Source: a virus. Taken from it: DNA of 64,000 bases. The stretch spans positions 1-64,000 of IMG/VR virus record IMGVR_UViG_3300042402_007915; one strand, written 5' to 3'. The position numbers were made by a program, and so were the translations under genes. The notes below the pieces were generated by a model. That model worked only from the letters and a program-made list of their open reading frames with translations, did not search any database and was not told the origin of the DNA. This document shows, in pieces, positions 23,070 to 64,000 of this stretch (its first letter is position 1; each line of letters begins with the position of its first letter).

Positions 23070-23090
23070 GAACCCACCCCCCGAAGGGGG
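23070..23090 (-). promoter_or_regulatory. GAA-triloop hairpin element upstream of the polymerase gene
   Basis: GAAC CCAC CCCCC GAA GGGGG. Confidence 0.6.
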
Positions 23091-30601: not shown

Positions 30602-33600
30602 ATGGAAGACTGGATTAAGAAATATCTTGCCAATTCAGGCATCCTCGACACCGAAACCCTTGGCAGAGAGACTGGTTCGGGTATCCATGAACTGTCCTAC
30701 TACTCGTTTGCCAAGAATCAAGTAACTGAGTACTTACCGGCTCCGACTGTTGTAGATGTGTTGAGTGGTGTGCCTCAAGACGAAGCAAATATGCGTTCGT
30801 TCAAGGGCAACGTTTACTCTTCTCGTGTGTTTGCTGACTGGCGTACTGCTCTGCAGGACATGCTTGTTAACAAATACAAGATGGAGCTGGCGAATCTGCA
30901 GACTGATGATCATATCAAACATGCAATCTCTACTGTTAACTCGTTCTTGTATAAGCACCTTTATGAAGATAAGGCGTATCCTCACTTGTTAGGTGGTGCT
31001 CCTACTGCACAAGAGCTGGCCAAGAGAGAGGCAGAGTTTAAGCGTAGCGGTGTTAACTATAAGTTTGGTGGTTATGGTCTCACTGCTGAAGAGATGTATA
31101 AGCCCGGCGGAATTCTTCACTCTGCAATTAGAGAGACTGCAGATCCTACGATGGGCAGTACCGTCTGGATTGCTAACGCTAACTTCGAATCTAAACAGAT
31201 TGGCGCTTATGTTGGTGCAATGGCACAGGCCGGGGGTCCTGGCTCTGAGGACTTTAAGAGCATTTTTGAGTCTCGCTCTTCAACTCCGGAGCCTTTCTAC
31301 GTCACTGGAGCTGCTGTCAATAGGGCCCGCTCTAATGCACAGCTCACAGGAGACTGGACCCAAGTTTGGAAGGCCTATCGCGACAATACTCCTAAAGCAG
31401 GAGAGGTTGCTGTTCGAGACACCCTTGATCTTTCCAGGTCAATTCTGTCTTATGGTCAGAAGTTAAATCTGATTGATGTTAAAACGAAACAGACTCCTGG
31501 TGTTGGTACTGATTACCAAGAAAGACTGTTAAGAGGTGCTTTTGAGACCACTCGGGAGGGTCGTCTTAAGGGCATGCTTGCTTCTGAAGCCCACAGAGCA
31601 GCAGAAGACGCAGCTAGGTCTGAACGTTACGTACTTGAGAAGTCTCTTCAGGCTTTGTCTGTCCTTGAGAGAGTAGAGAAAGGTGGCGCCGATGCTGACA
31701 CCCTCTTAAGGGAAGCAGCAGAAGGTAGAGGTCCTCTTGCCCCTGTTATGCGGTACTTTGAGATCTACAATCAGTCCCTTGCACCAGCAATCAGAAGAAG
31801 GCACCTCTTGCAACAGTTTGAACGAGGGGTAACGGACTTAGAAACAAAGGGGTACGCCACACACACAACCGGGATTGACCAAACAATCGCGGAAAGACAA
31901 AAAACCCCAAGCGGACGGGCAACGACAATCCAGAGGAACTTGTACGCACAAAAGTACTTCAGGGACCCAGAAGAATATGGGCGGTATATTTCGCAAACTG
32001 GGGAGTTCCAGAAGTACGGATTTGATCCCGATGCCGAATGGAAGGCAATGCAGGAGTTTATAGACGAAGAACTCAAACACAGGCCAACTGCGACTCGGGC
32101 TACTCTTGCTACTGAATACGTTGAGACTGAAACGGGCGACTCTTTAACGAGTTACTTTGACAATAACGCTGCTAGGCTTTCTGGTTTGTCTGGTAGTTTC
32201 AATACCAGGAGAGTAAGGGCGGGTGGTATTCACTCTACTCAGGGGTTGCATACTTGGGCGACTGGTAAGATTGCCGGTGCAATTAAGAAGGCCCCGCTTG
32301 CGTTTGGTGCGGCCTCCGTTTTTGGTCTTGTTGGTGGAACCCTTGCGGCAGTTACAACCCCTTCTGAGGAACGGTACGCACCCCAAAACAGCATTCTGAG
32401 TATGTCTTACAGTGAATACTCGGCCGCAAGAGATTTAGAGACAGCAACTCACGACGGTTTCCCTGAAAAGGGCCTAGCAAAAATGACTAGGTCCAGCAGA
32501 ACAGACTTCGGATCGCCTTATCAGGGACCGGCCACCTCTTTATCAGTAATAGTACATCAAGACCTACTTAGAGCAAGAGAGCAAGAGCAGAGAAAGAAGT
32601 ACGGCGGCGGAAGTTACGACGAAAGGCCTGAATTGAGGTCAATGTTCACCTACACGAGACAAAGAAATACTGCACTGTCAGGTGATCCAGCTGATGGTTT
32701 GTTTACTGGTCTAAGAAACCAAAATGGAATGAAAGTTCTTAACATCGATGACAGCTACGACTTCGAAATCGAAGACGTTGACACGGTAAAGCTGCAAAAG
32801 AGGGGAATGTTTGCCTCCTTGCAGCGGTTCATGGGACTGGGCGGCTCCTATACCTTCCGTCTCGAGGGCATTGACGCTACAGAAACAAGCCACGGGATGT
32901 TTGACGACTCATGGCATACGCCACAACCTGGAGCACAGGAATCAATTGCAGGCTTCCAGAGGCTAGTACAAAAGGGCGGCCTTCAAATGGTGTTTGACCC
33001 CAATGACAACACCTATGGTCGCGGAGTAGGAACGCTCTTTTCTAACGGACAAAACATAAACCAAAAACTAGTAGAACAGGGTTTGGCGGCACATCTTCCT
33101 TACGGCTCATACATGGATGCACATGCAAACTGGGATGCAATGAGAAAAGCAGAACAGAAAGCTGTAGATGCCAGGAGAGGAATATGGTCGACAGCTTGGG
33201 CACAGACTTATAGGCACTTTACTGACTCTGCTGGAACTCAGATTACGTTCAACACGTTTGCTAGACCAAGTAAAATGGCCGAAAACTACAAAACAATGGA
33301 ATTGATCAGCCTTATGGAGCAGGCACAAGAGAAGGGCGCCATTTCTCCTCTCCAGGCCGAAACTGCATCTGCAATAGGCAAGTCATGGTCTCAATTCGGA
33401 GACAAGATGACCCCTTACCAGATTGAAGGAAATATTGCCGCCAACTACAGAGCGTCTATGCCCTCACTGATCAGAGACAATACTTCATTCATGCAAACCC
33501 AAGGAACCGGAAGTAACCCCAACAAGCTCGAAACAAAGAACTTTAACGACCTGAACGGTTACTTAGCAGTAGATTCAATGGGAAGCACAAACAGCCCCTA

Positions 33601-33742
33601 TACAAAAAATGCCTACCAGGCGTATGAAGTGTATGGCGTTGACAAAAAAAGAGCAGCTGAAAGAAGAGCTAGAATGGCTGCTATGCAAAGAAACATCAAC
33701 AACAAGTTTGGCGAGTCACCCATTAACCACCACAGGATGTAA
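30602..33742 (+). CDS. DEDDh 3'-5' exonuclease plus SNase (thermonuclease) fusion
   Basis: N-terminal LDTET, ANANFE, DTLDLSR, AHRAAED; C-terminal DVDT, RLEGIDATE, YGR, INQKLVEQGLA, RRGIW. Confidence 0.75.
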   Translation: MEDWIKKYLANSGILDTETLGRETGSGIHELSYYSFAKNQVTEYLPAPTVVDVLSGVPQDEANMRSFKGNVYSSRVFADWRTALQDMLVNKYKMELANLQTDDHIKHAISTVNSFLYKHLYEDKAYPHLLGGAPTAQELAKREAEFKRSGVNYKFGGYGLTAEEMYKPGGILHSAIRETADPTMGSTVWIANANFESKQIGAYVGAMAQAGGPGSEDFKSIFESRSSTPEPFYVTGAAVNRARSNAQLTGDWTQVWKAYRDNTPKAGEVAVRDTLDLSRSILSYGQKLNLIDVKTKQTPGVGTDYQERLLRGAFETTREGRLKGMLASEAHRAAEDAARSERYVLEKSLQALSVLERVEKGGADADTLLREAAEGRGPLAPVMRYFEIYNQSLAPAIRRRHLLQQFERGVTDLETKGYATHTTGIDQTIAERQKTPSGRATTIQRNLYAQKYFRDPEEYGRYISQTGEFQKYGFDPDAEWKAMQEFIDEELKHRPTATRATLATEYVETETGDSLTSYFDNNAARLSGLSGSFNTRRVRAGGIHSTQGLHTWATGKIAGAIKKAPLAFGAASVFGLVGGTLAAVTTPSEERYAPQNSILSMSYSEYSAARDLETATHDGFPEKGLAKMTRSSRTDFGSPYQGPATSLSVIVHQDLLRAREQEQRKKYGGGSYDERPELRSMFTYTRQRNTALSGDPADGLFTGLRNQNGMKVLNIDDSYDFEIEDVDTVKLQKRGMFASLQRFMGLGGSYTFRLEGIDATETSHGMFDDSWHTPQPGAQESIAGFQRLVQKGGLQMVFDPNDNTYGRGVGTLFSNGQNINQKLVEQGLAAHLPYGSYMDAHANWDAMRKAEQKAVDARRGIWSTAWAQTYRHFTDSAGTQITFNTFARPSKMAENYKTMELISLMEQAQEKGAISPLQAETASAIGKSWSQFGDKMTPYQIEGNIAANYRASMPSLIRDNTSFMQTQGTGSNPNKLETKNFNDLNGYLAVDSMGSTNSPYTKNAYQAYEVYGVDKKRAAERRARMAAMQRNINNKFGESPINHHRM

Positions 33743-53596: not shown

Positions 53597-54277
53597 ATGG
53601 CTACAAGTGCTCTTGAGCTTTCTAGAACCTACACATCCTATAGCGGCACTGATATCAAGGCCGTTATCAACGGACAGCCTCTGGCGACGCTTCAGGGCAT
53701 TTCTTACGCCGTGCAGCGCGAGAAGGCTCCGGTATACGTCATGGGCAGCAAAGACCCCCTTTCTTTCTCTCGTGGTAAGCGTGGCATCGCAGGCACCATC
53801 ATCGCGATGATGTTTGACGAGCACGCTCTCTACAAGGAGGCTGCGTTCAGGGATACGCAGGTCATCCTCGGGAAGGAAGAGATCTACGCCAACCCATCCA
53901 GCCTGAACTCGCTGACGACTGGCCCTTCCGGAGACCTTCTGGACCTGGGTTCTGTCGATCCGAGTTACGCCGGCCTAAACCCATCAGACCTGTCTGCCTC
54001 GTATCAGCCCTACAACCCATTCTACATGGACCAGCTGCCTCCGTTTGACATCGTTCTCGTTGCACAGAACGAGTACGGCAATGCTGCTACCATGAGAATC
54101 TATGGTGCTGAGATTCTGAACGAGGGCTCAGGCTTCTCAATCGACGACACCACCATCGAAAGCCAGATGACTTACGTTTGTAGGACCATCCTGCCTTGGC
54201 AGAAGCTTGGTAACTTCACCGTAAGCGGTTCTGGATTCAGCGGCGGCTTCACGACTTCGCCGGTTGGTCCTACCTAG
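53597..54277 (+). CDS. tail tube protein
   Basis: YSGTDI, ISYAVQREK, RGKRGIAGT, LPPFDI, NEGSGFSIDD. Confidence 0.8.
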   Translation: MATSALELSRTYTSYSGTDIKAVINGQPLATLQGISYAVQREKAPVYVMGSKDPLSFSRGKRGIAGTIIAMMFDEHALYKEAAFRDTQVILGKEEIYANPSSLNSLTTGPSGDLLDLGSVDPSYAGLNPSDLSASYQPYNPFYMDQLPPFDIVLVAQNEYGNAATMRIYGAEILNEGSGFSIDDTTIESQMTYVCRTILPWQKLGNFTVSGSGFSGGFTTSPVGPT

Positions 54278-54348
54278 GCTGACAAAACAGTAACTAAATG
54301 ATATACAGGGTGAGGCAACTCACCCTGTATTCTTTTGTAGGAGAGAAA

Positions 54349-55071
54349 ATGCAGTATCGTTACTCGTATTCAGGTGCCGACTGTAAGGTTTATATCTGCC
54401 CGCACGGAGAGTACAGCAAGTTCATTGAACTAGAAAGTTTCAATACAATTTCGTACTCGATCCATGAGGCAAAGGGGCAGGCCAGAGCTTTAGGCTATAG
54501 AGGGGTAAAGGGCTTCTCTAGGGGCATTAGAACCATCGCCGGCTCTTTCATCCTCACGGTCATTGAAGACAACCCGTTCCGTCCGTTCTTAAAGCTCTTG
54601 CAAGAACCAGGAGAAAGCATCCCCGCTGTTGACAAGAGACAGTACGGCTACTCTGCTGATATGGGGCTGACAGGTACTGGGGCCTTTAATGATGATCTCG
54701 ACTTTAGCAACGCACTCCCAACCATCATGTACCCGTTCGATCTGCTATTGATCTATGCAACAGAGCGACCGTTTGAAGCAAGAACCGACACTATTTGGCG
54801 CGAAGATGAAACCTGGAGGCGAAAGACAGAAGATCGAGGGCTCGAGGCAGCATACGCTTCAAGCCTTATTGAGGCTATTGAGATTGTAGATAACGGTGTA
54901 GTTACTTCGATTAATGACTCGGTGACTGAAATGACGTGTTCATTTATGGCAAGAAACGTAATGCCAATGACGCTTGTCCTGCCAAGAAAAACAATCTTTT
55001 TGAACGACGATGAAAGGCCTCCTGTCCCTTTTCCAGCAGATTTGGGTAGCAGCACAGAGGAGTCTGACTAA
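54349..55071 (+). CDS. tail tube-like paralogue 2
   Basis: YSGADC, ISYSIHEAK, RGIRTIAGS, PFDL, SINDS. Confidence 0.75.
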   Translation: MQYRYSYSGADCKVYICPHGEYSKFIELESFNTISYSIHEAKGQARALGYRGVKGFSRGIRTIAGSFILTVIEDNPFRPFLKLLQEPGESIPAVDKRQYGYSADMGLTGTGAFNDDLDFSNALPTIMYPFDLLLIYATERPFEARTDTIWREDETWRRKTEDRGLEAAYASSLIEAIEIVDNGVVTSINDSVTEMTCSFMARNVMPMTLVLPRKTIFLNDDERPPVPFPADLGSSTEESD

Positions 55072-56511: not shown

Positions 56512-57183
56512 ATGCTCGACATCAAGAAGATTGTCGAGAGTGAGGGACTGTATAGAACGAGCCTCCCTTTCGGAGGCTCGTTTACTTGGCGCCTCTTAAC
56601 TCTCAAAGAATACAACGCCTTCGCTTCCCTCAAGGACTCCGGTACCATTAACGACTATGAGTTCTACACAAAGGTGTTTGAGTACTGTTTTGTGGGGAAT
56701 CCTTTACTCATTGATGGAAGCATGCCAATGGGTATTATCTTCGGGATTGGACGGCTAATCATTGACCTGTCAGGACACAAAGACGCAGAGCAAGAGAAGG
56801 CTGAACTTGAGATTGCTCGCCAAAACTATCCCAGGAATACTCTGCTTGAGTACATGAAAAGAGTAATACTTAGAACGTTTTCAACGTATACTCCAGAAAT
56901 TATTGAGAATTGGACAAGGGAAAAAATCCTAGAAAGATTTGTCTTGGCAGAGTCTGTCTTGGCTGATGCTACGGGATACACCCCAATCTCAATGGACAAC
57001 ATTCTGTCTCCGCAAGAGGCGAAGAAGAAGGCAAAGAAGAAGGAGAAGATTGACTTCGAGAAGGAAAACAGAGCACTCGAAAAGTCTCTTGGTAAGAACG
57101 GACAGCACTTTGTTGAGAACACTCCAACTGATCCAGAGTATGAAAAGCGTCTTCGGATAGCGAAGGCGATGGGAGGTAGGTAG
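56512..57183 (+). CDS. putative tail assembly chaperone 2
   Basis: Position; WRLLTLKEY. Confidence 0.55.
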   Translation: MLDIKKIVESEGLYRTSLPFGGSFTWRLLTLKEYNAFASLKDSGTINDYEFYTKVFEYCFVGNPLLIDGSMPMGIIFGIGRLIIDLSGHKDAEQEKAELEIARQNYPRNTLLEYMKRVILRTFSTYTPEIIENWTREKILERFVLAESVLADATGYTPISMDNILSPQEAKKKAKKKEKIDFEKENRALEKSLGKNGQHFVENTPTDPEYEKRLRIAKAMGGR

Positions 57184-60100
57184 TGGCATTTGAATCGTTT
57201 AGGGGCCCAGACATTTGGAGCAGTGAAGAGGCTCCGAACTCAAATGCAAACCTGTACAACTCGGGACAGTTCGCCGTTGCTGCAGCAGTAGCCGGTGGGG
57301 GTCTTTACGCTGGGTACAAGTTTAACAATAACTCGATGTACCCAATGATTGAAGGTGCGTCAGATAAGTTTAGACGTATTGGTAACCTGACCCCCTTTCA
57401 GCTTGCGAACACTTTCCGTATCCCTGAGTTTTTGTCTTTCTTTACGTCAGCCCAGTACAAGAATCGGGTCCTAAATCTAAGTGGCAACGCTTCTCCTGTT
57501 TCAGGAGTAATTGAGTGGGGTCGTGATGCTCTACAGAACGAAGACACTGCCGATTACATTTCTAGTATTACCGGGAGAAGTAGGAATGAGTTGGCGGCTC
57601 TTGGGTTCGAGCCCACTCGTATCAAGAATCTTGTTGGTGCTGACAACGCCAAACTGTCTTGGGAAGCAACCGGTGCAGGCAGAGGACGGCTCTCGTTTGT
57701 TCAGAGCCTAAGTGGTGTAGAAAGTCGGGCTCTTCTTTCTGAGGACATTGCTGTCGGTGCTTTCTCTCATGAGGTTAATGCTGCTGCTGGCGGGCACAAG
57801 GGAGAAGTAAACAAGCTAACCGAAGGAATGATGCGGGCGGCTGGCGTTGGGGAACGAACCGACGACTCCGTCAACAAGATCCTAAGAAGTTATACCGCCT
57901 CTGGAAGTACTGCACCCTCGTTTATGCCAGTACCGTCCATGTTGGGAAGGCTTGATAGCTTTGAGGACCTAGCACGACGCAGTACGATCCTTCGAGGTAT
58001 CTACTCGTTCTCTGCAAACCGCTTTAATGAGCTTATGGAAACGTTCGTCGACACTATGGGCGGCGACAAGACCAAAGAGTTCATGCGGAATGTTTTGGGT
58101 GTTAATCCTAAAGTCAAAGGCGGTACCGCAAGCTCTCTTATAGCTCGTTATGCGGGTAGAGCAGCAGCTTTTGGAGGAGCTGTTCTTGCCGTTGACCAGC
58201 TCGATTGGTTTAGGCGTCAGCACTCCTTCGGCCAAGTCTTTTCCTCTGGGGTAATGTCTGCAGGCTTTGCCTATGCCGCCCAAAAGATGGGCCATACTAG
58301 AGTCGCCAAGTATGGGGCCGCTGCTACTTTCTTGGGTCAGTTGATCCTTCCCGGTTTTGATGAAGGTGTTGTACCTGGAGTAGCAAGTAGTCTTGCGTCC
58401 TTGGACGTAATAAGAGGCTCGCCCCTTAACCCAATGACCCACTACAGAAGGGCGGTGGAAGGTCTGCTCCCCGGATTTACTGGGTTTGAGTTTACTGCGC
58501 TTACAGGTGCAGCTGCCCTTCTTGCAACTTCTATTCGGTCTCCAATTAGCGGACAGACCTTAGCGGAGAAAATCTTCTCAAAGTACGGAAACATTGTAGG
58601 TGTCGGACATGGAAATATCGACAACTACTATGGCGTAAACAAAGAAGCTCTCAGCCCAAGAGATATCTACTGGAACAAGGTGTCAGAAGCTGTTGACCAG
58701 AAGGTAGGCGCTCCTATTGGAATGGAAAGAAGGACGCTAAAAGAACGAGCTCTGTTATTTAACCGGTTCGAAAAGCTGTTTGGTGCGGACGCAGACTTTA
58801 CTGCCAACTCACTATTCCAAGCAGCAGAGACCGAACACAAAGAGTTGATGCGGAACTCTTTCACTACTTCTGGTGGCATTAACAACCGAATGGTTGAAGC
58901 CTTACGTGGAGTCGCAAGCAAATACCAAGGTCAAGGCTTGGGCAAGAAAGTAATGATGAACGTAGAAGGGTTTGGCGTTCAGTTACTGTATTCGGTGTTT
59001 GGCGCGGACGCTTCTTACAACAAGGACATTAGATCTGCGATCAAAGGTTTGGGTTTTAAGGGACCGGTTGGTTCGTTTGGTAAGCTCCTGACCGTTGCTG
59101 GTGCAGGTATGGCCGCCCATTCTATTCTCTCGGGTAACCTGCTTGGTTCATTAGCAGGCTCTGAAGAGCTGTCTAGAATCTATTCAGGTGAACAGTTAGT
59201 TGAGGTGAAGAGTTCTAGGGCCTGGGAAGCTGGTGGTACTCCTTTTGAGGGAGGTGAAACTTCTTACTTCAGACCACACCAGTTAGCGTTGATGAGGAGT
59301 AGGGCAAGAGAGAAGGCGGTTTGGGGTGAGAATGAAGACGAGATTTCGCCTCTGAAGAAGTTCTTCATTAAGAACTTCACTTATGACCTCGAGAGAATGA
59401 ATTACTACAGGCGGCCTTATCAGATGACAGGGTCTGCATTCCAAGACGTCCCTATTGTTGGTGATATCTTGGCAGGCTCTGTTGGGCAGTTAATCAAGCG
59501 CGCAAGGCCGATGCATTTGGGTGAGTGGGTTCGTGAGGGCGAGTCCGGTTTGGAGTACGCCTCTTTGTTCAAGGGGGCAAAGGCCGAGCCGGCTTATGCG
59601 CTTGGGGCGCCTAAGCCTGGCGCTCCTGTCAGTCCGTTTGCAGCCGGTGAAATTGCCAAGCAGATGGTGTACCAGTTTAGAGAAATTGAAGGTATGACGG
59701 GATGGGCCAAGAACATCATCCAGCAGACGCTCACGGGTTCAGCTCAATGGGAGAACCCGGCTCAGTCTATTGCAACCTCAAACGAGATGGACTCGACAAA
59801 GCGTAACTTCTGGGAGATGAACTTAGGAGGCGCACTCTTCAGCAACGAAATCATGCGCCGTATCCTTCCTCCAGACAGACAGGGGTTAGTAAAACAAAAC
59901 GCAATTCGTAACGACATGCCTTACTGGTTGCCAGATAAATTCCACTATGGCGATCCATTCACACAGGTTGAATGGGGAGACGCAAGACTTCCAGGTGCAG
60001 GTTACGAGGCACTACATCCAGAACTAAGGGGAATGGACCCTAACGACTACCCACTAATTGCAAGGTACGCAATCTTGGGAGACGTAGCACCTACTTCATA

Positions 60101-61280
60101 CGAGTTTAACAAAACCCAAAGAGAGGTTTATAAGAAACGGTACGAAGGTGGTTACAACAAAGAGCAAGAGGTACTGATTGATACTGTAGCGGCTAATGCA
60201 GCATCAGTAATCTCAAAGCTGGATTTCAGAAGGAATGACCCTAACGCGTATAACACGGCACTGACACCGATAACAGGCGGCCTCTTCCATTCTCTCCTCT
60301 CGGTAGCAAGAGAAGTAGCAGCACCTGCTGAGTACTTATTCCCAATGGGTTTCCGCCCAATGCAGAAACTTACTGGACAACTAAGAACCCCAATTGAAGA
60401 GTACGAACACAGAAGAATGTACGGAACAAATATGGCCTTCTGGGATAAGCCAATCCGAGACTGGTTCCGTCCTGCTGCTTACAGTGCTGCTCACCTTGCG
60501 GGCTTTGATGGGAAGCCTGGCTGGAGAACAGAAGCAGATGCGGCGTCTCAAAGATTCGACCAAATTGAATTTGTAAAGTGGATGCGTCTTGCACAGACAG
60601 CTAAAGAAAATGGTCTCAAGAATGAAGAGAACCAATACCTCTGGGCTGCTCAGCAGACCCGCGCAGGAGTAAACCCTCAAGGCTCCCCCCTTGCCATTTA
60701 CTGGGCTCTCCCTGCCGAGGACAGAGCCTTTATGGACGCGTTCGCAAGGGCTGCACCTACTGAGAGGGGACGTATCCTAGAAATGGTTCCTAAGGACCAG
60801 CAGCACCTCTACAAGGCCTTGTGGAGTCGACTCGACAGTGGAGATCCAACAGTCCAGTACCCGACAAGTGCCAAGGTAGACGGCTTAGCCTTAGCACAAA
60901 AAGCAGCAGTCCTCGAGCAACAAATAGCTATGCCCAAAGAAGACTGGATTGGCTGGAATCAAGAAGTGGATATTTCAGACATTAAAGTACGCTATGCTCA
61001 AAACCATGCACTTGATCTTCAAGACTATGGCATGTGGGACAAGCAGCTTAAAAAGTCTTATAACCAGTCCTTTCTTGATGGAGCTGAACTAGAAGTGCCT
61101 GTGCCAAGTGCAATCATGGCGCAAGAGATTCGAAACAGCCTTTCATCAATGGGGGGGCCGCTAAATTCGAACTATACAGTCAATACCACGTACGGTATGT
61201 CTAGGGCAAAGATTGCTGTTAACGATGACAGAGAAGGCGCTATTCAAAGGTTAAGAAGGGAGGCTAACTATGGGCTTTGA
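57183..61280 (+). CDS. tape-measure-like large virion protein
   Basis: 1365 aa after the chaperones; Gly/Ala hydrophobic stretches; RLPGAGYE and ILGDVAP motifs. Confidence 0.65.
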   Translation: MAFESFRGPDIWSSEEAPNSNANLYNSGQFAVAAAVAGGGLYAGYKFNNNSMYPMIEGASDKFRRIGNLTPFQLANTFRIPEFLSFFTSAQYKNRVLNLSGNASPVSGVIEWGRDALQNEDTADYISSITGRSRNELAALGFEPTRIKNLVGADNAKLSWEATGAGRGRLSFVQSLSGVESRALLSEDIAVGAFSHEVNAAAGGHKGEVNKLTEGMMRAAGVGERTDDSVNKILRSYTASGSTAPSFMPVPSMLGRLDSFEDLARRSTILRGIYSFSANRFNELMETFVDTMGGDKTKEFMRNVLGVNPKVKGGTASSLIARYAGRAAAFGGAVLAVDQLDWFRRQHSFGQVFSSGVMSAGFAYAAQKMGHTRVAKYGAAATFLGQLILPGFDEGVVPGVASSLASLDVIRGSPLNPMTHYRRAVEGLLPGFTGFEFTALTGAAALLATSIRSPISGQTLAEKIFSKYGNIVGVGHGNIDNYYGVNKEALSPRDIYWNKVSEAVDQKVGAPIGMERRTLKERALLFNRFEKLFGADADFTANSLFQAAETEHKELMRNSFTTSGGINNRMVEALRGVASKYQGQGLGKKVMMNVEGFGVQLLYSVFGADASYNKDIRSAIKGLGFKGPVGSFGKLLTVAGAGMAAHSILSGNLLGSLAGSEELSRIYSGEQLVEVKSSRAWEAGGTPFEGGETSYFRPHQLALMRSRAREKAVWGENEDEISPLKKFFIKNFTYDLERMNYYRRPYQMTGSAFQDVPIVGDILAGSVGQLIKRARPMHLGEWVREGESGLEYASLFKGAKAEPAYALGAPKPGAPVSPFAAGEIAKQMVYQFREIEGMTGWAKNIIQQTLTGSAQWENPAQSIATSNEMDSTKRNFWEMNLGGALFSNEIMRRILPPDRQGLVKQNAIRNDMPYWLPDKFHYGDPFTQVEWGDARLPGAGYEALHPELRGMDPNDYPLIARYAILGDVAPTSYEFNKTQREVYKKRYEGGYNKEQEVLIDTVAANAASVISKLDFRRNDPNAYNTALTPITGGLFHSLLSVAREVAAPAEYLFPMGFRPMQKLTGQLRTPIEEYEHRRMYGTNMAFWDKPIRDWFRPAAYSAAHLAGFDGKPGWRTEADAASQRFDQIEFVKWMRLAQTAKENGLKNEENQYLWAAQQTRAGVNPQGSPLAIYWALPAEDRAFMDAFARAAPTERGRILEMVPKDQQHLYKALWSRLDSGDPTVQYPTSAKVDGLALAQKAAVLEQQIAMPKEDWIGWNQEVDISDIKVRYAQNHALDLQDYGMWDKQLKKSYNQSFLDGAELEVPVPSAIMAQEIRNSLSSMGGPLNSNYTVNTTYGMSRAKIAVNDDREGAIQRLRREANYGL

Positions 61281-64000
61281 TCCATTCACAAGAATGCAAG
61301 AGAAGAAGGAAAGGACTACAGACGGCTTTGCGGTCGCCGCTAGTCTTGCGCCTGCTGTGGGCGTGGCAAGCTATCTTTGGAAGCAGCAAGTGAAGAACGG
61401 CCCCATTAATCCTGTCTCCTCTCTAGGTCTGAAGAATGACACTTCTGACTTCGGTAGAGAACTTGGTAAGGCCCTAAAGCCAAAAGAAAAAAAGGAAGCA
61501 GCAATAAAGGCCTTCCTGGAAGGAGATGCTTTTGCCAAGGTAGTTAGTAAAGCCCAAGACAGAAGAGCCTTAATTCAGTCTGTACTGATTGGACTGGACG
61601 CTGATGAGCTTGGAGTCGACAAGGGAGCCCTTGCTGACCTAAAGGACAAACTTCTTAAAATCGGTGAATTGGACCAAGACGACCTTGCCGATGACCTGAT
61701 TCGTCCTCTCAGGGAGGTCATTGATACGCTTAACACCTCTGGTAACGATTCCATGAGGAGTAAAGTGGCCGAGAACTTCCAGGAGCTAAAAGCGTTCAAG
61801 AAGAAGATTGTTCCGGCCAAGCCTTTTGGCAGTCGTCCCTCTTCGACGAGTTTCAGGGTGCTGGATCAAAGCGCTCTAACTAACTTTGACACCTTCAGGA
61901 CTCAAGTTAGGTCTGCCGGTGCAAACGCAGGAGACGAAGAGCTTTCAAGAATCTTCAATGACCAAGTTGGAAGCATTAAACGGTTTATCGGTACGAATCT
62001 CGATAATGCTCAGCTAGTCGTTGTCGACGCTGCAGCTGGTGTTAAGTCACTAAACCTTAGAATCATGCAGGGTACTAAGGGGAACATGAGACCGGTTATG
62101 AACCTGCCAGTAGCGTTCAACCTCGGCAACACCGATGCGTCGATGCCTAACATCACAAGAATGGGGCGTGACTTTGCTACAGGGTACTTTGTTCCGCAAG
62201 GCGTTATCGACACAAGAGAAATCTTGCATCAGCTTAAGGAGGGAAAGATCACTCCGGGTAACGTAAAGGGTGTTCAGTCGAATATGAAAAGCTTCGGCAG
62301 CTATGCTCTTGGCTTACTAGAAGAACACTTTGAAATGACCCCGAGTGGAAGACTGAAGTCTCGACTTGGCACCACCAACAAAAAAGCACAGTCTGAAATG
62401 TTTGCAGTGCTAAATGCGAACATGGAGAACATGCCTAGGTCTCTGTCTGCGACTCTAGAATCGAATGAAGCTCAGGCCGAATACCAGTCTCATGTTAAAA
62501 AGCGTGCTGGTGCTAAACACAAGACTGTTTTGCTGACTCATGGTGAAGCTCTTACAGATGCTGACTTCAACTATGTGCATACTTCCTTGATTGGTGGAGA
62601 TTCTCCTTTTGACCCTGGTGTTGGTGCTTCTCGTTTGCAGAACATAATTGGTGGTCGCAAGTTTGGTTTGCTTCAGTTGTCGAGTCATTCTGTTCATAGT
62701 CGTTACAGATTGCCGTTTAAGGTGTCGCGTAAAGACGCGCCACTTATTGCTCGACAGGAGCAGGTAGAAGGTCGTATTGGTCAGTTCATTGCTCGAGGTG
62801 GAAAGGAAAACAATCCGACTATCAGAGGCGGACTGACTCTGGGAGAAGAGACAGCCTCTCCTATCCTTGAGGGAATGACGGGACACAAGAACGTACTTGT
62901 TGCAGTTGACGTCACAATGGGAAAAGGAAAGGGCGCTTATTCTGCGGCAGAAAATGAAGGTCAGTACTTTGTTCCAAAGAACAAAGGAGCAGGTCTTGGT
63001 GCCTACATCACAGAGAGCACAATCCCGCTACTCGACCCCGAAGAACACAAGCTTATGTCTTCAGAGCTACTCGAACAATTAAAGGCAGATTTCGAGGCAG
63101 GAAAGCCGCCGCGTTATTTCACGCTTGAAGAGATCGGCAAGCTTAACGGATATCTTGGTCACTCAACGCTTGGTAACAGGACTGTAAGGATTGATCCTCG
63201 TATGCTCGGCGCGTATATGGGTATTGCAGAGACAACAAGTGCTTCTGGAAAGAAGCAAATTCACCTGACATCTCGAGCTGTTAGAAAGGCTAGCGCAGGC
63301 AAAGTCTTCTCCACCTCGACAGTAAAAGGAACTTATAGAGCAACGAGAACTGCTTCTATCCGGCGAGATCTATCTACTTATGGTAGGACTAACTTGGTAG
63401 ACGGAAGACTTGTCAGAGAAGACGTATTCGACCGCATTCTCACTGACGTAAGTGGTGTAAAAAGCGGAGCCGGCCTAAACATCAAGGGTTCGTTTATCAC
63501 GGGCTCTGGAGACGTGCTGAAGAAGTCTGCTGCAAACAGGGCCAACTTCCTATTGACCTCCGCCGCTGTCTCTCTAGGTCAAAAGCACTCCAACCTCCTT
63601 CATGAAATGACTGGTAAAGTAAGCAGCTCGGAAGAACACTCCAGTTACCTGTTTAACAAGATTGCCACAGCTTTCGAAGCGGGACAAATCTCGGAAAGCC
63701 AAGCAGCCAATAGCTTATCTCTACCTTGGTGGGGAGGAGGCAGAGGAACAGGTAAAGGCGCTTACGCTCCGGAAATGAAGTCTATCGCAGATGAAATGCT
63801 TAAGCGTTCGCAAGAGACTACAGAGCAAGGAAAGAAGTGGGCTGCCCTGCTTGAGCTAACAGAAAAAGGACTTCAGGTAGGTGTGGATACTGTCACGCAG
63901 GGTACGGGACACGGAGATTACGGACTGGGTCGCGCATCTATTGAACCGAGAGCAATCGGGTTCATTCGCATGTCTCTCCAGGACATGGGTTTTGACAGCA
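61270..64000 (+). CDS. large virion protein, possible virion RNA polymerase (3'-truncated)
   Basis: ATG 61270 with GGAGG RBS; the frame appears open to the window end (spot-checked, about 910 codons); beta-like motifs GHKNVLVAV...ENEGQYFV and VRKASAGKVFSTSTVKG. Confidence 0.5.
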   Translation, partial: MGFDPFTRMQEKKERTTDGFAVAASLAPAVGVASYLWKQQVKNGPINPVSSLGLKNDTSDFGRELGKALKPKEKKEAAIKAFLEGDAFAKVVSKAQDRRALIQSVLIGLDADELGVDKGALADLKDKLLKIGELDQDDLADDLIRPLREVIDTLNTSGNDSMRSKVAENFQELKAFKKKIVPAKPFGSRPSSTSFRVLDQSALTNFDTFRTQVRSAGANAGDEELSRIFNDQVGSIKRFIGTNLDNAQLVVVDAAAGVKSLNLRIMQGTKGNMRPVMNLPVAFNLGNTDASMPNITRMGRDFATGYFVPQGVIDTREILHQLKEGKITPGNVKGVQSNMKSFGSYALGLLEEHFEMTPSGRLKSRLGTTNKKAQSEMFAVLNANMENMPRSLSATLESNEAQAEYQSHVKKRAGAKHKTVLLTHGEALTDADFNYVHTSLIGGDSPFDPGVGASRLQNIIGGRKFGLLQLSSHSVHSRYRLPFKVSRKDAPLIARQEQVEGRIGQFIARGGKENNPTIRGGLTLGEETASPILEGMTGHKNVLVAVDVTMGKGKGAYSAAENEGQYFVPKNKGAGLGAYITESTIPLLDPEEHKLMSSELLEQLKADFEAGKPPRYFTLEEIGKLNGYLGHSTLGNRTVRIDPRMLGAYMGIAETTSASGKKQIHLTSRAVRKASAGKVFSTSTVKGTYRATRTASIRRDLSTYGRTNLVDGRLVREDVFDRILTDVSGVKSGAGLNIKGSFITGSGDVLKKSAANRANFLLTSAAVSLGQKHSNLLHEMTGKVSSSEEHSSYLFNKIATAFEAGQISESQAANSLSLPWWGGGRGTGKGAYAPEMKSIADEMLKRSQETTEQGKKWAALLELTEKGLQVGVDTVTQGTGHGDYGLGRASIEPRAIGFIRMSLQDMGFDS

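Follow-up and report, generated by a model that had tools for sequence, protein, structure and literature searches.

To our knowledge, virion-borne two-barrel RNA polymerases (RNAPs) have been shown experimentally in only two phage groups, one being the crAss-like podoviruses and the other the Thermus phage P23-45, which is long-tailed. The virion RNAP of phi14:2, a crAss-like phage, is gp66 (PDB 6VR4; bioRxiv 2020.03.07.982082). That of P23-45 is gp96, a two-barrel polymerase fused to the tape measure, and the same phage has a non-virion paralog, gp64 (PMC10770324; PDB 8H2M/8H2N). The gp96 group includes P74-26, G20c, and TSP4, and P74 gp62 is represented by PDB 8F5M (PMC10770324). All two-barrel polymerases have eight residues in common: three Asp, the Arg and Pro of an R-x-P motif, a pair of Lys at a distance of eight residues, and an acidic residue in Rpb2 (Ruprich-Robert and Thuriaux, PMC2919709). 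The two lysines, in K-x7-K spacing, are K1065/K1073 in beta and K979/K987 in Rpb2 (PMC2919709).

Here we describe P0002, a gene of the virus record IMGVR_UViG_3300042402_007915. This IMG/VR record of 147,225 bp is classed as a provirus, and its first 64 kb (positions 1 to 64,000) form the window, the whole stretch of DNA that was analyzed. P0002 begins near the right end of the window, and its full length was read from the parent record. Its product has conserved active-site residues and a predicted two-barrel polymerase fold, and the gene is encoded together with tail and virion proteins. Residues and modeled fold together make it very likely that P0002 is an active two-barrel polymerase.

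P0002 resembles P23-45 gp96 in being a single chain in which a beta-like barrel precedes a beta'-like barrel, with an Asp triad of the DFDGD type. The gene of each lies at the tape-measure position of the tail module, with transmembrane and metallopeptidase elements nearby, and in both phages there is a second polymerase, located here in the early region. The two proteins show no detectable sequence or profile similarity, and their likeness is at the level of the fold only. P23-45 has a siphovirus tail, whereas the phage described here has a contractile one. The gp96 polymerase forms the N-terminus of a protein of 5,002 amino acids (aa), whereas P0002 is a separate gene encoding 1,767 aa, with the M23 domain in the next gene, P0003. 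In addition, gp96 is clamp-less, whereas P0002 has a connector of ~500 aa between its two barrels. The crAss-like gp66 is likewise a large single-chain two-barrel enzyme from a structural block, and its packaging, ejection, and early-gene transcription would be expected for P0002 as well. It differs in belonging to a podovirus, in being carried in the head, in its DFDID motif (DxDGD in P0002), and in its length of 2,180 aa, and no sequence or profile match of gp66 to P0002 was found in the PDB library, which contains 6VR4.

Putative catalytic residues of the P0002 family

A sequence-only reading of the window had proposed that a large ORF starting at 61270 and lacking a stop in the window might be a virion RNAP. 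The ORF has an ATG at 61270 and is open through 64000. Its stop lies at 66571-66573 of the record, and the full product has 1,767 aa. A contig of 200,515 bp has the exact P0002 protein as well, which indicates that the 147-kb record is a cut-out.

A word-index homolog search returned a single relative of P0002. A full scan with HMMER, covering 1.8 billion representatives, identified 66 relatives, mostly 1,650-1,800 aa in length and none of them named. Conservation was counted in an alignment of 46 full-length homologs with a mean column identity of 20%. The columns without any variation were Q498, G564, K678, F680, K686, P1206, G1319, D1350, D1352, D1354, G1433, E1469, D1750, and R1752.

The two strings that the sequence-only reading had likened to RpoB are located where it had placed them, GHKNVLVAVD from codon 538 (62881) in a block spanning codons 538-567 and the lysine-bearing string at residues 661-689. 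The reading had pointed to a K-x7-KG spacing as in RpoB, and this is what the family retains: K678 and K686 are eight residues apart, both are present in 46/46 homologs, and the Gly that follows (G687) is found in 39/46. With K678, F680, and K686 unchanged in every homolog and G687 kept in 39/46, the pattern is more than a chance resemblance. The proposed equivalence of AENEGQ with RpoB NFED fared differently, as these residues are not conserved (E561 in 16/46 and E563 in 7/46).

The RxP and beta'-like DxDGD motifs that had been predicted to lie beyond the window are both present there, as ARAPALAAGN (R1204 and P1206) and LADADGDWA (D1350, D1352, and D1354). R1204 is found in 45/46 homologs, with Lys in the remaining one, and P1206 in all 46. 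The family consensus at this site, RHPxLSxGN, is similar to NRAPTLH. The three Asp are each present in 46/46 homologs and G1353 in 42/46, and the family consensus GDFDGD is the canonical beta' signature. Residues G1433, E1469, K1474, and K1476 are conserved after the triad. Seven of the eight universal residues are accounted for in the P0002 family, in the correct order and with the correct spacing.

The distance between RxP and the triad is unusually long. RxP lies 110-187 aa ahead of DxDxD in members of the P0002 family, compared with ~20-100 aa in the families surveyed together with P23-45. That survey of viral two-barrel polymerases used PSI-BLAST and the filter [RK]xPx{20,100}DxDxD (PMC10770324). 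The P0002 family would fail this filter because its RxP is at least 110 residues ahead of the triad in every member.

Predicted fold of the polymerase core

An AlphaFold2 model of P0002 residues 430-1500, built on 49 sequences, had a mean predicted local distance difference test (pLDDT) score of 85.9 and a predicted template modeling (pTM) score of 0.87. The model was compared by VIA-align with 48,161 representative chains and by Foldseek with the PDB. The top 20 VIA-align rows were exclusively two-barrel polymerases, and the top 50 Foldseek rows were all RNAP beta or beta' chains. Second-largest-subunit chains aligned with model positions 3-459 (vaccinia Rpo132, Z 10.7 with 305 aligned residues, and those of African swine fever virus, Pol I, Pol III, and Pol IV), and the beta-like chains of AR9 and phiKZ matched the same region. 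Largest-subunit chains aligned with positions 516-1071 (Pol I, Z 9.4, followed by Pol II, archaeal A', and Mycobacterium tuberculosis beta').

Single-chain enzymes spanned the whole model (6-1070), with QDE-1 (Z 9.8, 394 aligned) and RDR2 (Z 9.5, 384 aligned) ahead of the phage enzymes P74 gp62 (Z 8.9, 334 aligned), P23-45 gp96 (Z 6.8, 323 aligned), and crAss gp66 (Z 5.6, 405 aligned). Isolated double-psi beta-barrel domains (a designed barrel, VAT-N, and Cdc48-N) matched model positions 664-937, in which both RxP and the triad lie. The Asp triad is located in a loop between two strands of the model. It is followed by long helices (model 947-977, 985-1019, and 1025-1043) that lie inside the ranges aligned to Rpb1 chains.

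The double-psi-barrel fold suggested by the sequence-only reading is thus recovered in the model, with the first half matching beta-type chains and the second half beta'-type chains. Neither of the outcomes that would have counted against that reading, a full ORF lacking DxDxD or an unrelated fold, was observed. We consider this fold evidence convincing because the list of matches is uniform, the halves map cleanly to beta and beta', and the motif residues lie in the matching halves. The RNAP candidacy is supported by the full ORF, with its RxP and DADGD motifs, its conserved residues, and its predicted two-barrel fold. In the enzyme that we envisage, the beta-like barrel would supply K678 and K686, the beta'-like barrel would supply R1204-x-P1206 and the Mg-binding D1350-x-D1352-G-D1354, and the long helices after the triad would take the bridge-helix position.

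QDE-1, plant RDR2, and YonO-like enzymes, which include the best whole-core matches of P0002, have the same barrel order in one chain. They are cellular RNA interference enzymes or non-virion phage enzymes, and the other polymerase of the window (described below) matches them far better than P0002 does. The multisubunit RNAPs of cells, poxviruses, and phiKZ/AR9 share with P0002 the active-site logic of the eight universal residues, of which seven are accounted for in P0002, and match its model half by half, as beta and beta'. Unlike them, P0002 is one chain, and no flap/sandwich-barrel hybrid motif, clamp, sigma-binding, or other subunit-specific domain was identified in it.

In BFVD, the model matched a Siphoviridae sp. 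ctnpt50 protein labeled 'minor tail protein' (E 2e-6 over 1,190 columns), A0A7R7G2L5 (5e-6), and, weakly, large proteins of the Microcystis phages LMM01 and MaMV-DC. Polymerase cores embedded in tail proteins may be more widespread. A further BFVD match, the top hit A0A172Q0S6 (798 aa, phage ME3; E 1e-4), has a size that would suit the second half of the 1,603-aa ME3 protein ME3_36, but it could not be mapped to a gene with a catalytic triad and was not counted as support; the one 798-aa coding sequence seen in ME3, ME3_309, lacks DxDxD.

Tail-module context of P0002

The genes upstream of P0002 encode a terminase, a portal, a protease, a major capsid protein, and a tail sheath, which makes this a contractile-tailed phage. 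Among cultured phages, those closest to it by terminase are Moorella phage MTATph1, Acinetobacter phage ME3, and Bacillus phage 0305phi8-36. The gene immediately upstream, P0070, had been taken for the tape measure, an assignment that comparison with these relatives does not support. P0070 is homologous to gp145 of 0305phi8-36, which mass spectrometry identified as a virion structural protein, and its BLASTP match ME3_35 is itself annotated as a gp145 homolog. P0070 had no Pfam or PHROG match, and the ESM Atlas gave nothing useful.

It is P0002 itself that occupies the tape-measure slot, ahead of a giant M23 baseplate hub. Its position is that of 0305phi8-36 ORF146, which is annotated as a 'hypothetical tape measure protein' and was detected in virions by mass spectrometry. 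In cultured ME3, the same slot holds ME3_36, a 1,603-aa protein with SREP...GGDHDQD that is the probable counterpart of P0002. The gene that follows, P0003, matches the baseplate-hub/'endolysin' giants of 0305phi8-36 and of Moorella and Bacillus jumbo phages. The order of a ~1,350-aa protein, the polymerase, and a ~3,000-aa protein with M23 was also found in three unrelated metagenomic contigs (including L005 and L017) and in a complete 150-kb IMG/VR genome (G001). A fourth contig, L004, has a version with a split hub, in which the P0003 equivalent consists of three ORFs (313, 653, and 2,107 aa). The lineage of 0305phi8-36 and ME3 relatives comprises ~60 clusters at 50% identity in metagenomes.

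The start of P0002 overlaps the end of P0070 (61280) by 11 nt, which suggests translational coupling with the upstream gene, and its last base (66573) is the first base of P0003. P0002 is probably coupled translationally to these neighboring tail and virion genes. A hydrophobic segment 115-140 aa ahead of the C-terminus is present in 39/46 family members, and the family has a conserved C-terminal motif ending in RRPITxNYxDRLxGEY. An N-terminal segment is hydrophobic by score in ~19/46 members, and the corresponding stretch of P0002 itself is below the threshold.

Other genes of the structural arm were noted. Two adjacent paralogs after the sheath (53597-55071, plus strand; 226 and 257 aa) match PHROG 9206, 'major head protein'. 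Their position and their counterparts in ME3 and 0305phi8-36 ('major structural protein') make it more likely that they form the tail tube. At the start of the arm, 30602-33742 (plus strand) encodes a 1,046-aa protein with a staphylococcal-nuclease domain at aa 751-863, and the position of this protein is conserved in G001 (1,023 aa). The structural arm (28000-64000) has a steady GC content of 47-55%, and the left arm (1-28000) is GC-rich and uneven (44-68%). The non-structural arm of G001 is, by contrast, AT-rich (34-39% GC).

A second polymerase and a repeated hairpin element

The early region of the window encodes a second single-chain two-barrel polymerase, whose RFP...GDDDGD residues are invariant in seven homologs. 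Its AlphaFold2 model (pLDDT 68.6) matched RDR2 (Z 15.8, 472 aligned), QDE-1 (Z 12.0), and P74 gp62 (Z 11.0), and the enzyme is probably a non-virion two-barrel polymerase of the QDE-1/RDR type. It had no Pfam, PDB sequence, or cultured-phage match, and a profile search to enlarge its family gave no new members. The possibility that P0002 and this enzyme are paralogs, as in P23-45, was not supported, as hhalign of the two families found nothing. G001 lacks the second polymerase.

An element of the form GGAAC-N4-(5-bp GC stem)-GAA-(stem) occurs in 9-10 copies between 4722 and 23090, all on the plus strand and none on the minus strand. Several copies are found 9-40 nt beyond the start of a minus-strand ORF, and one of these ORFs is the second polymerase gene (Table 1). 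G001 carries a comparable set of 11 stems, with ATA as the loop, at 87.8-141.6 kb in its minus-strand arm, several of them preceded by GGACCAAC. We regard the element as a candidate promoter element. Such hairpins could also be terminators or RNA elements; no T-run follows them in either orientation.

Table 1. Positions of the features discussed, in window coordinates or, where marked, in coordinates of the parent record
Feature	Position	Strand	Remarks
Second single-chain two-barrel polymerase, 1,389-1,407 aa	18831..23054	-	RFPAILPQSL, DLQGDDDGD
GGAAC-N4-stem5-GAA-stem5, one copy	23070..23090	+	16 nt outside start of second polymerase gene
P0070, 1,365 aa, gp145-like	57183..61280	+	BLASTP 6e-43 to ME3_35
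Shine-Dalgarno-like AAGGGAGG	61256..61263	+	6 nt ahead of ATG 61270
Polymerase gene P0002, first 910 codons	61270..64000	+	stop-free to window end
N-terminal hydrophobic stretch of P0002, GFAVAASLAPAVGVASYLW	61324..61380	+	aa 19-37
Beta/Rpb2-like half of P0002 core, lysine-bearing barrel	62575..63933	+	aa 436-888, model 7-459; VIA-align
Block TG-x-NK...D...G-x-G with GHKNVLVAVD	62881..62970	+	G538 44/46, N541 38/46, D547 37/46, G564 46/46
Lysine block GK...R...K678-x-F680-S-x4-K686-G-T, KKQIHLTSRAVRKASAGKVFSTSTVKGTY	63250..63336	+	K678 63301-63303, K686 63325-63327
Family-specific motif GTGHGDYGLGRASIEPR	63901..63951	+	G878, E892, R894 in at least 90%; end of beta-like half
RxP of P0002, beyond window	record 64879-64887	+	R1204, P1206
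DADGD of P0002, beyond window	record 65317-65331	+	residues 1350-1354
Hydrophobic segment of P0002, beyond window	record 66154-66231	+	aa 1629-1654
P0003, 2,968 aa, just beyond window	record 66573-75479 (L002:5574-14480)		M23 domain aa 635-684, several hydrophobic stretches

Searches by sequence and profile

Pfam gave no match to P0002 at E up to 1, its RNAP models included, and PHROG gave one match only, which was insignificant. Searches with phmmer and with the 46-sequence profile against all PDB chains (8H2M, 8H2N, 8F5M, and 6VR4 included) retrieved no polymerase at E up to 10, only coiled-coil noise. No match to P0002 or to the second polymerase was found by tblastn in 50,697 phage records, and GenBank phages contain no member of the P0002 family. 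A related-locus search with six close sequences turned up a single IMG/VR contig and no locus in 185,579 species genomes. By hhalign, the P0002 family showed nothing significant against Moorella phage CDS0026 and CDS0027, ME3_36, or 0305phi8-36 ORF146. When P0002 was compared with its two neighbors by BLASTP, no N- or C-terminal signature common to them rose above chance.

Discussion

From its place among the tail genes and by analogy with the characterized phage enzymes, we consider it rather probable that P0002 is a single-chain two-barrel RNA polymerase that is packaged, delivered with the virion, and transcribes the first genes. Late in infection, P0002 would be incorporated into the tail or virion, and its hydrophobic segments may anchor it at a membrane conduit. 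Ejected with the DNA, it would transcribe the first phage genes without host RNA polymerase, and these may include the gene for the second, QDE-1-like polymerase. We infer catalytic activity, DNA templating, packaging, and the choice of transcribed genes, and virion delivery in particular from just two things, gene position and precedent.

Several observations weigh against this interpretation. The eighth universal residue (Rpb2 D837/beta D814) has no invariant Asp or Glu as its counterpart upstream of K678 in the 46 homologs; partial candidates are D547, present in 37/46 (80%), and D589, with 33 Asp and 6 Glu (85%). The Pfam, PHROG, and PDB searches link the family to no polymerase by sequence or profile. 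The structural matches are themselves modest, with Foldseek E-values against the PDB of 0.01-0.1 (no row at E of 0.001 or below) and VIA-align Z-scores of at most 10.7. A folded core of ~1,000 aa would be hard to fit in a tail tube. Finally, position alone does not imply a polymerase, because ORF146 of 0305phi8-36 and the Moorella proteins in the same slot lack DxDxD.

A variant of the virion-polymerase model holds that P0002 is the tape measure itself with an embedded polymerase core, an unfused-hub version of P23-45 gp96, so that a single protein would both set tail length and transcribe. This would suit the slot it shares with ORF146, annotated as a hypothetical tape measure and seen in 0305phi8-36 virions, and the fact that neither neighbor is a tape measure, one being gp145-like and the other a baseplate hub. 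The extreme C-termini of the P0002 family and ORF146 also align weakly (INDTRRPITPNYLDRLNGEY versus ISDDRSTFNRSWLEKQFGDY), but the alignment falls short of significance (hhalign probability 0.5%, BLASTP E 1.9). Moreover, only ~700 residues lie outside the globular core, and no tape-measure family in Pfam or PHROG matches P0002. We view this variant as possible but tentative.

P0002 might also be an active two-barrel polymerase that is not delivered by the virion, serving as a late or middle transcriptase, a primer-maker, or a QDE-1-like RNA-dependent enzyme. The fold evidence is silent on packaging, the closest single-chain structural matches (QDE-1 and RDR2) copy RNA or single-stranded DNA, and G001 has a P0002-type enzyme and no second polymerase, so the role of the enzyme may exceed the first minutes of infection. 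We nevertheless find this alternative unlikely, given that in five contigs the gene lies, probably with translational coupling, between those of two giant tail or virion proteins, that the hydrophobic segment and C-terminal motif conserved in the family are typical of tail proteins that are ejected, and that both characterized phage enzymes from structural modules are virion-borne. A purely structural tail protein, with polymerase-like motifs that are chance or the relics of a dead enzyme, would fit the lack of Pfam, PHROG, or PDB sequence matches and the slot-mates without DxDxD, but it is highly improbable in view of the predicted high-confidence two-barrel fold and of seven catalytic-site residues that are constant or almost constant, and correctly ordered and spaced, across 46 sequences of 20% identity, as a dead enzyme would not retain exactly these residues.

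Returning to a virion-delivered P0002, a broader scenario can be drawn that includes the hairpins. In it, a contractile-tailed lineage of 0305phi8-36/ME3 relatives would have replaced its tape measure by, or merged it with, a sequence-orphan, tail-delivered two-barrel RNAP that recognizes GC-stem/triloop hairpins in the template strand (GGAAC-N4-stem-GAA-stem here and GGACC...stem-ATA-stem in G001), in convergence with the unrelated N4 virion polymerase. Taken as a whole, this scenario is speculative, and we consider it doubtful.

The kind of enzyme is already known, since P23-45 gp96 and crAss gp66 are virion two-barrel polymerases from structural modules. The novelty lies in the family, in its occurrence in a contractile-tailed phage, in the fact that it has a gene of its own in the tape-measure slot, and in the long insertion within the beta'-like barrel. 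No publication describing the P0002 family was found in a literature search, and Pfam, PHROGs, profile searches of the PDB, and tblastn against cultured phages all miss the family.

The P0002 family would extend the virion-RNAP strategy to contractile-tailed phages. It raises the mechanical question of how a ~190-kDa enzyme with a folded core of 1,000 residues exits through, or together with, a contractile tail. The idea is open to test in ME3, a cultured Acinetobacter phage, whose ME3_36 is the probable counterpart. The family is also a very divergent branch from which to reconstruct the minimal core and how cellular-type RNA polymerases evolved.

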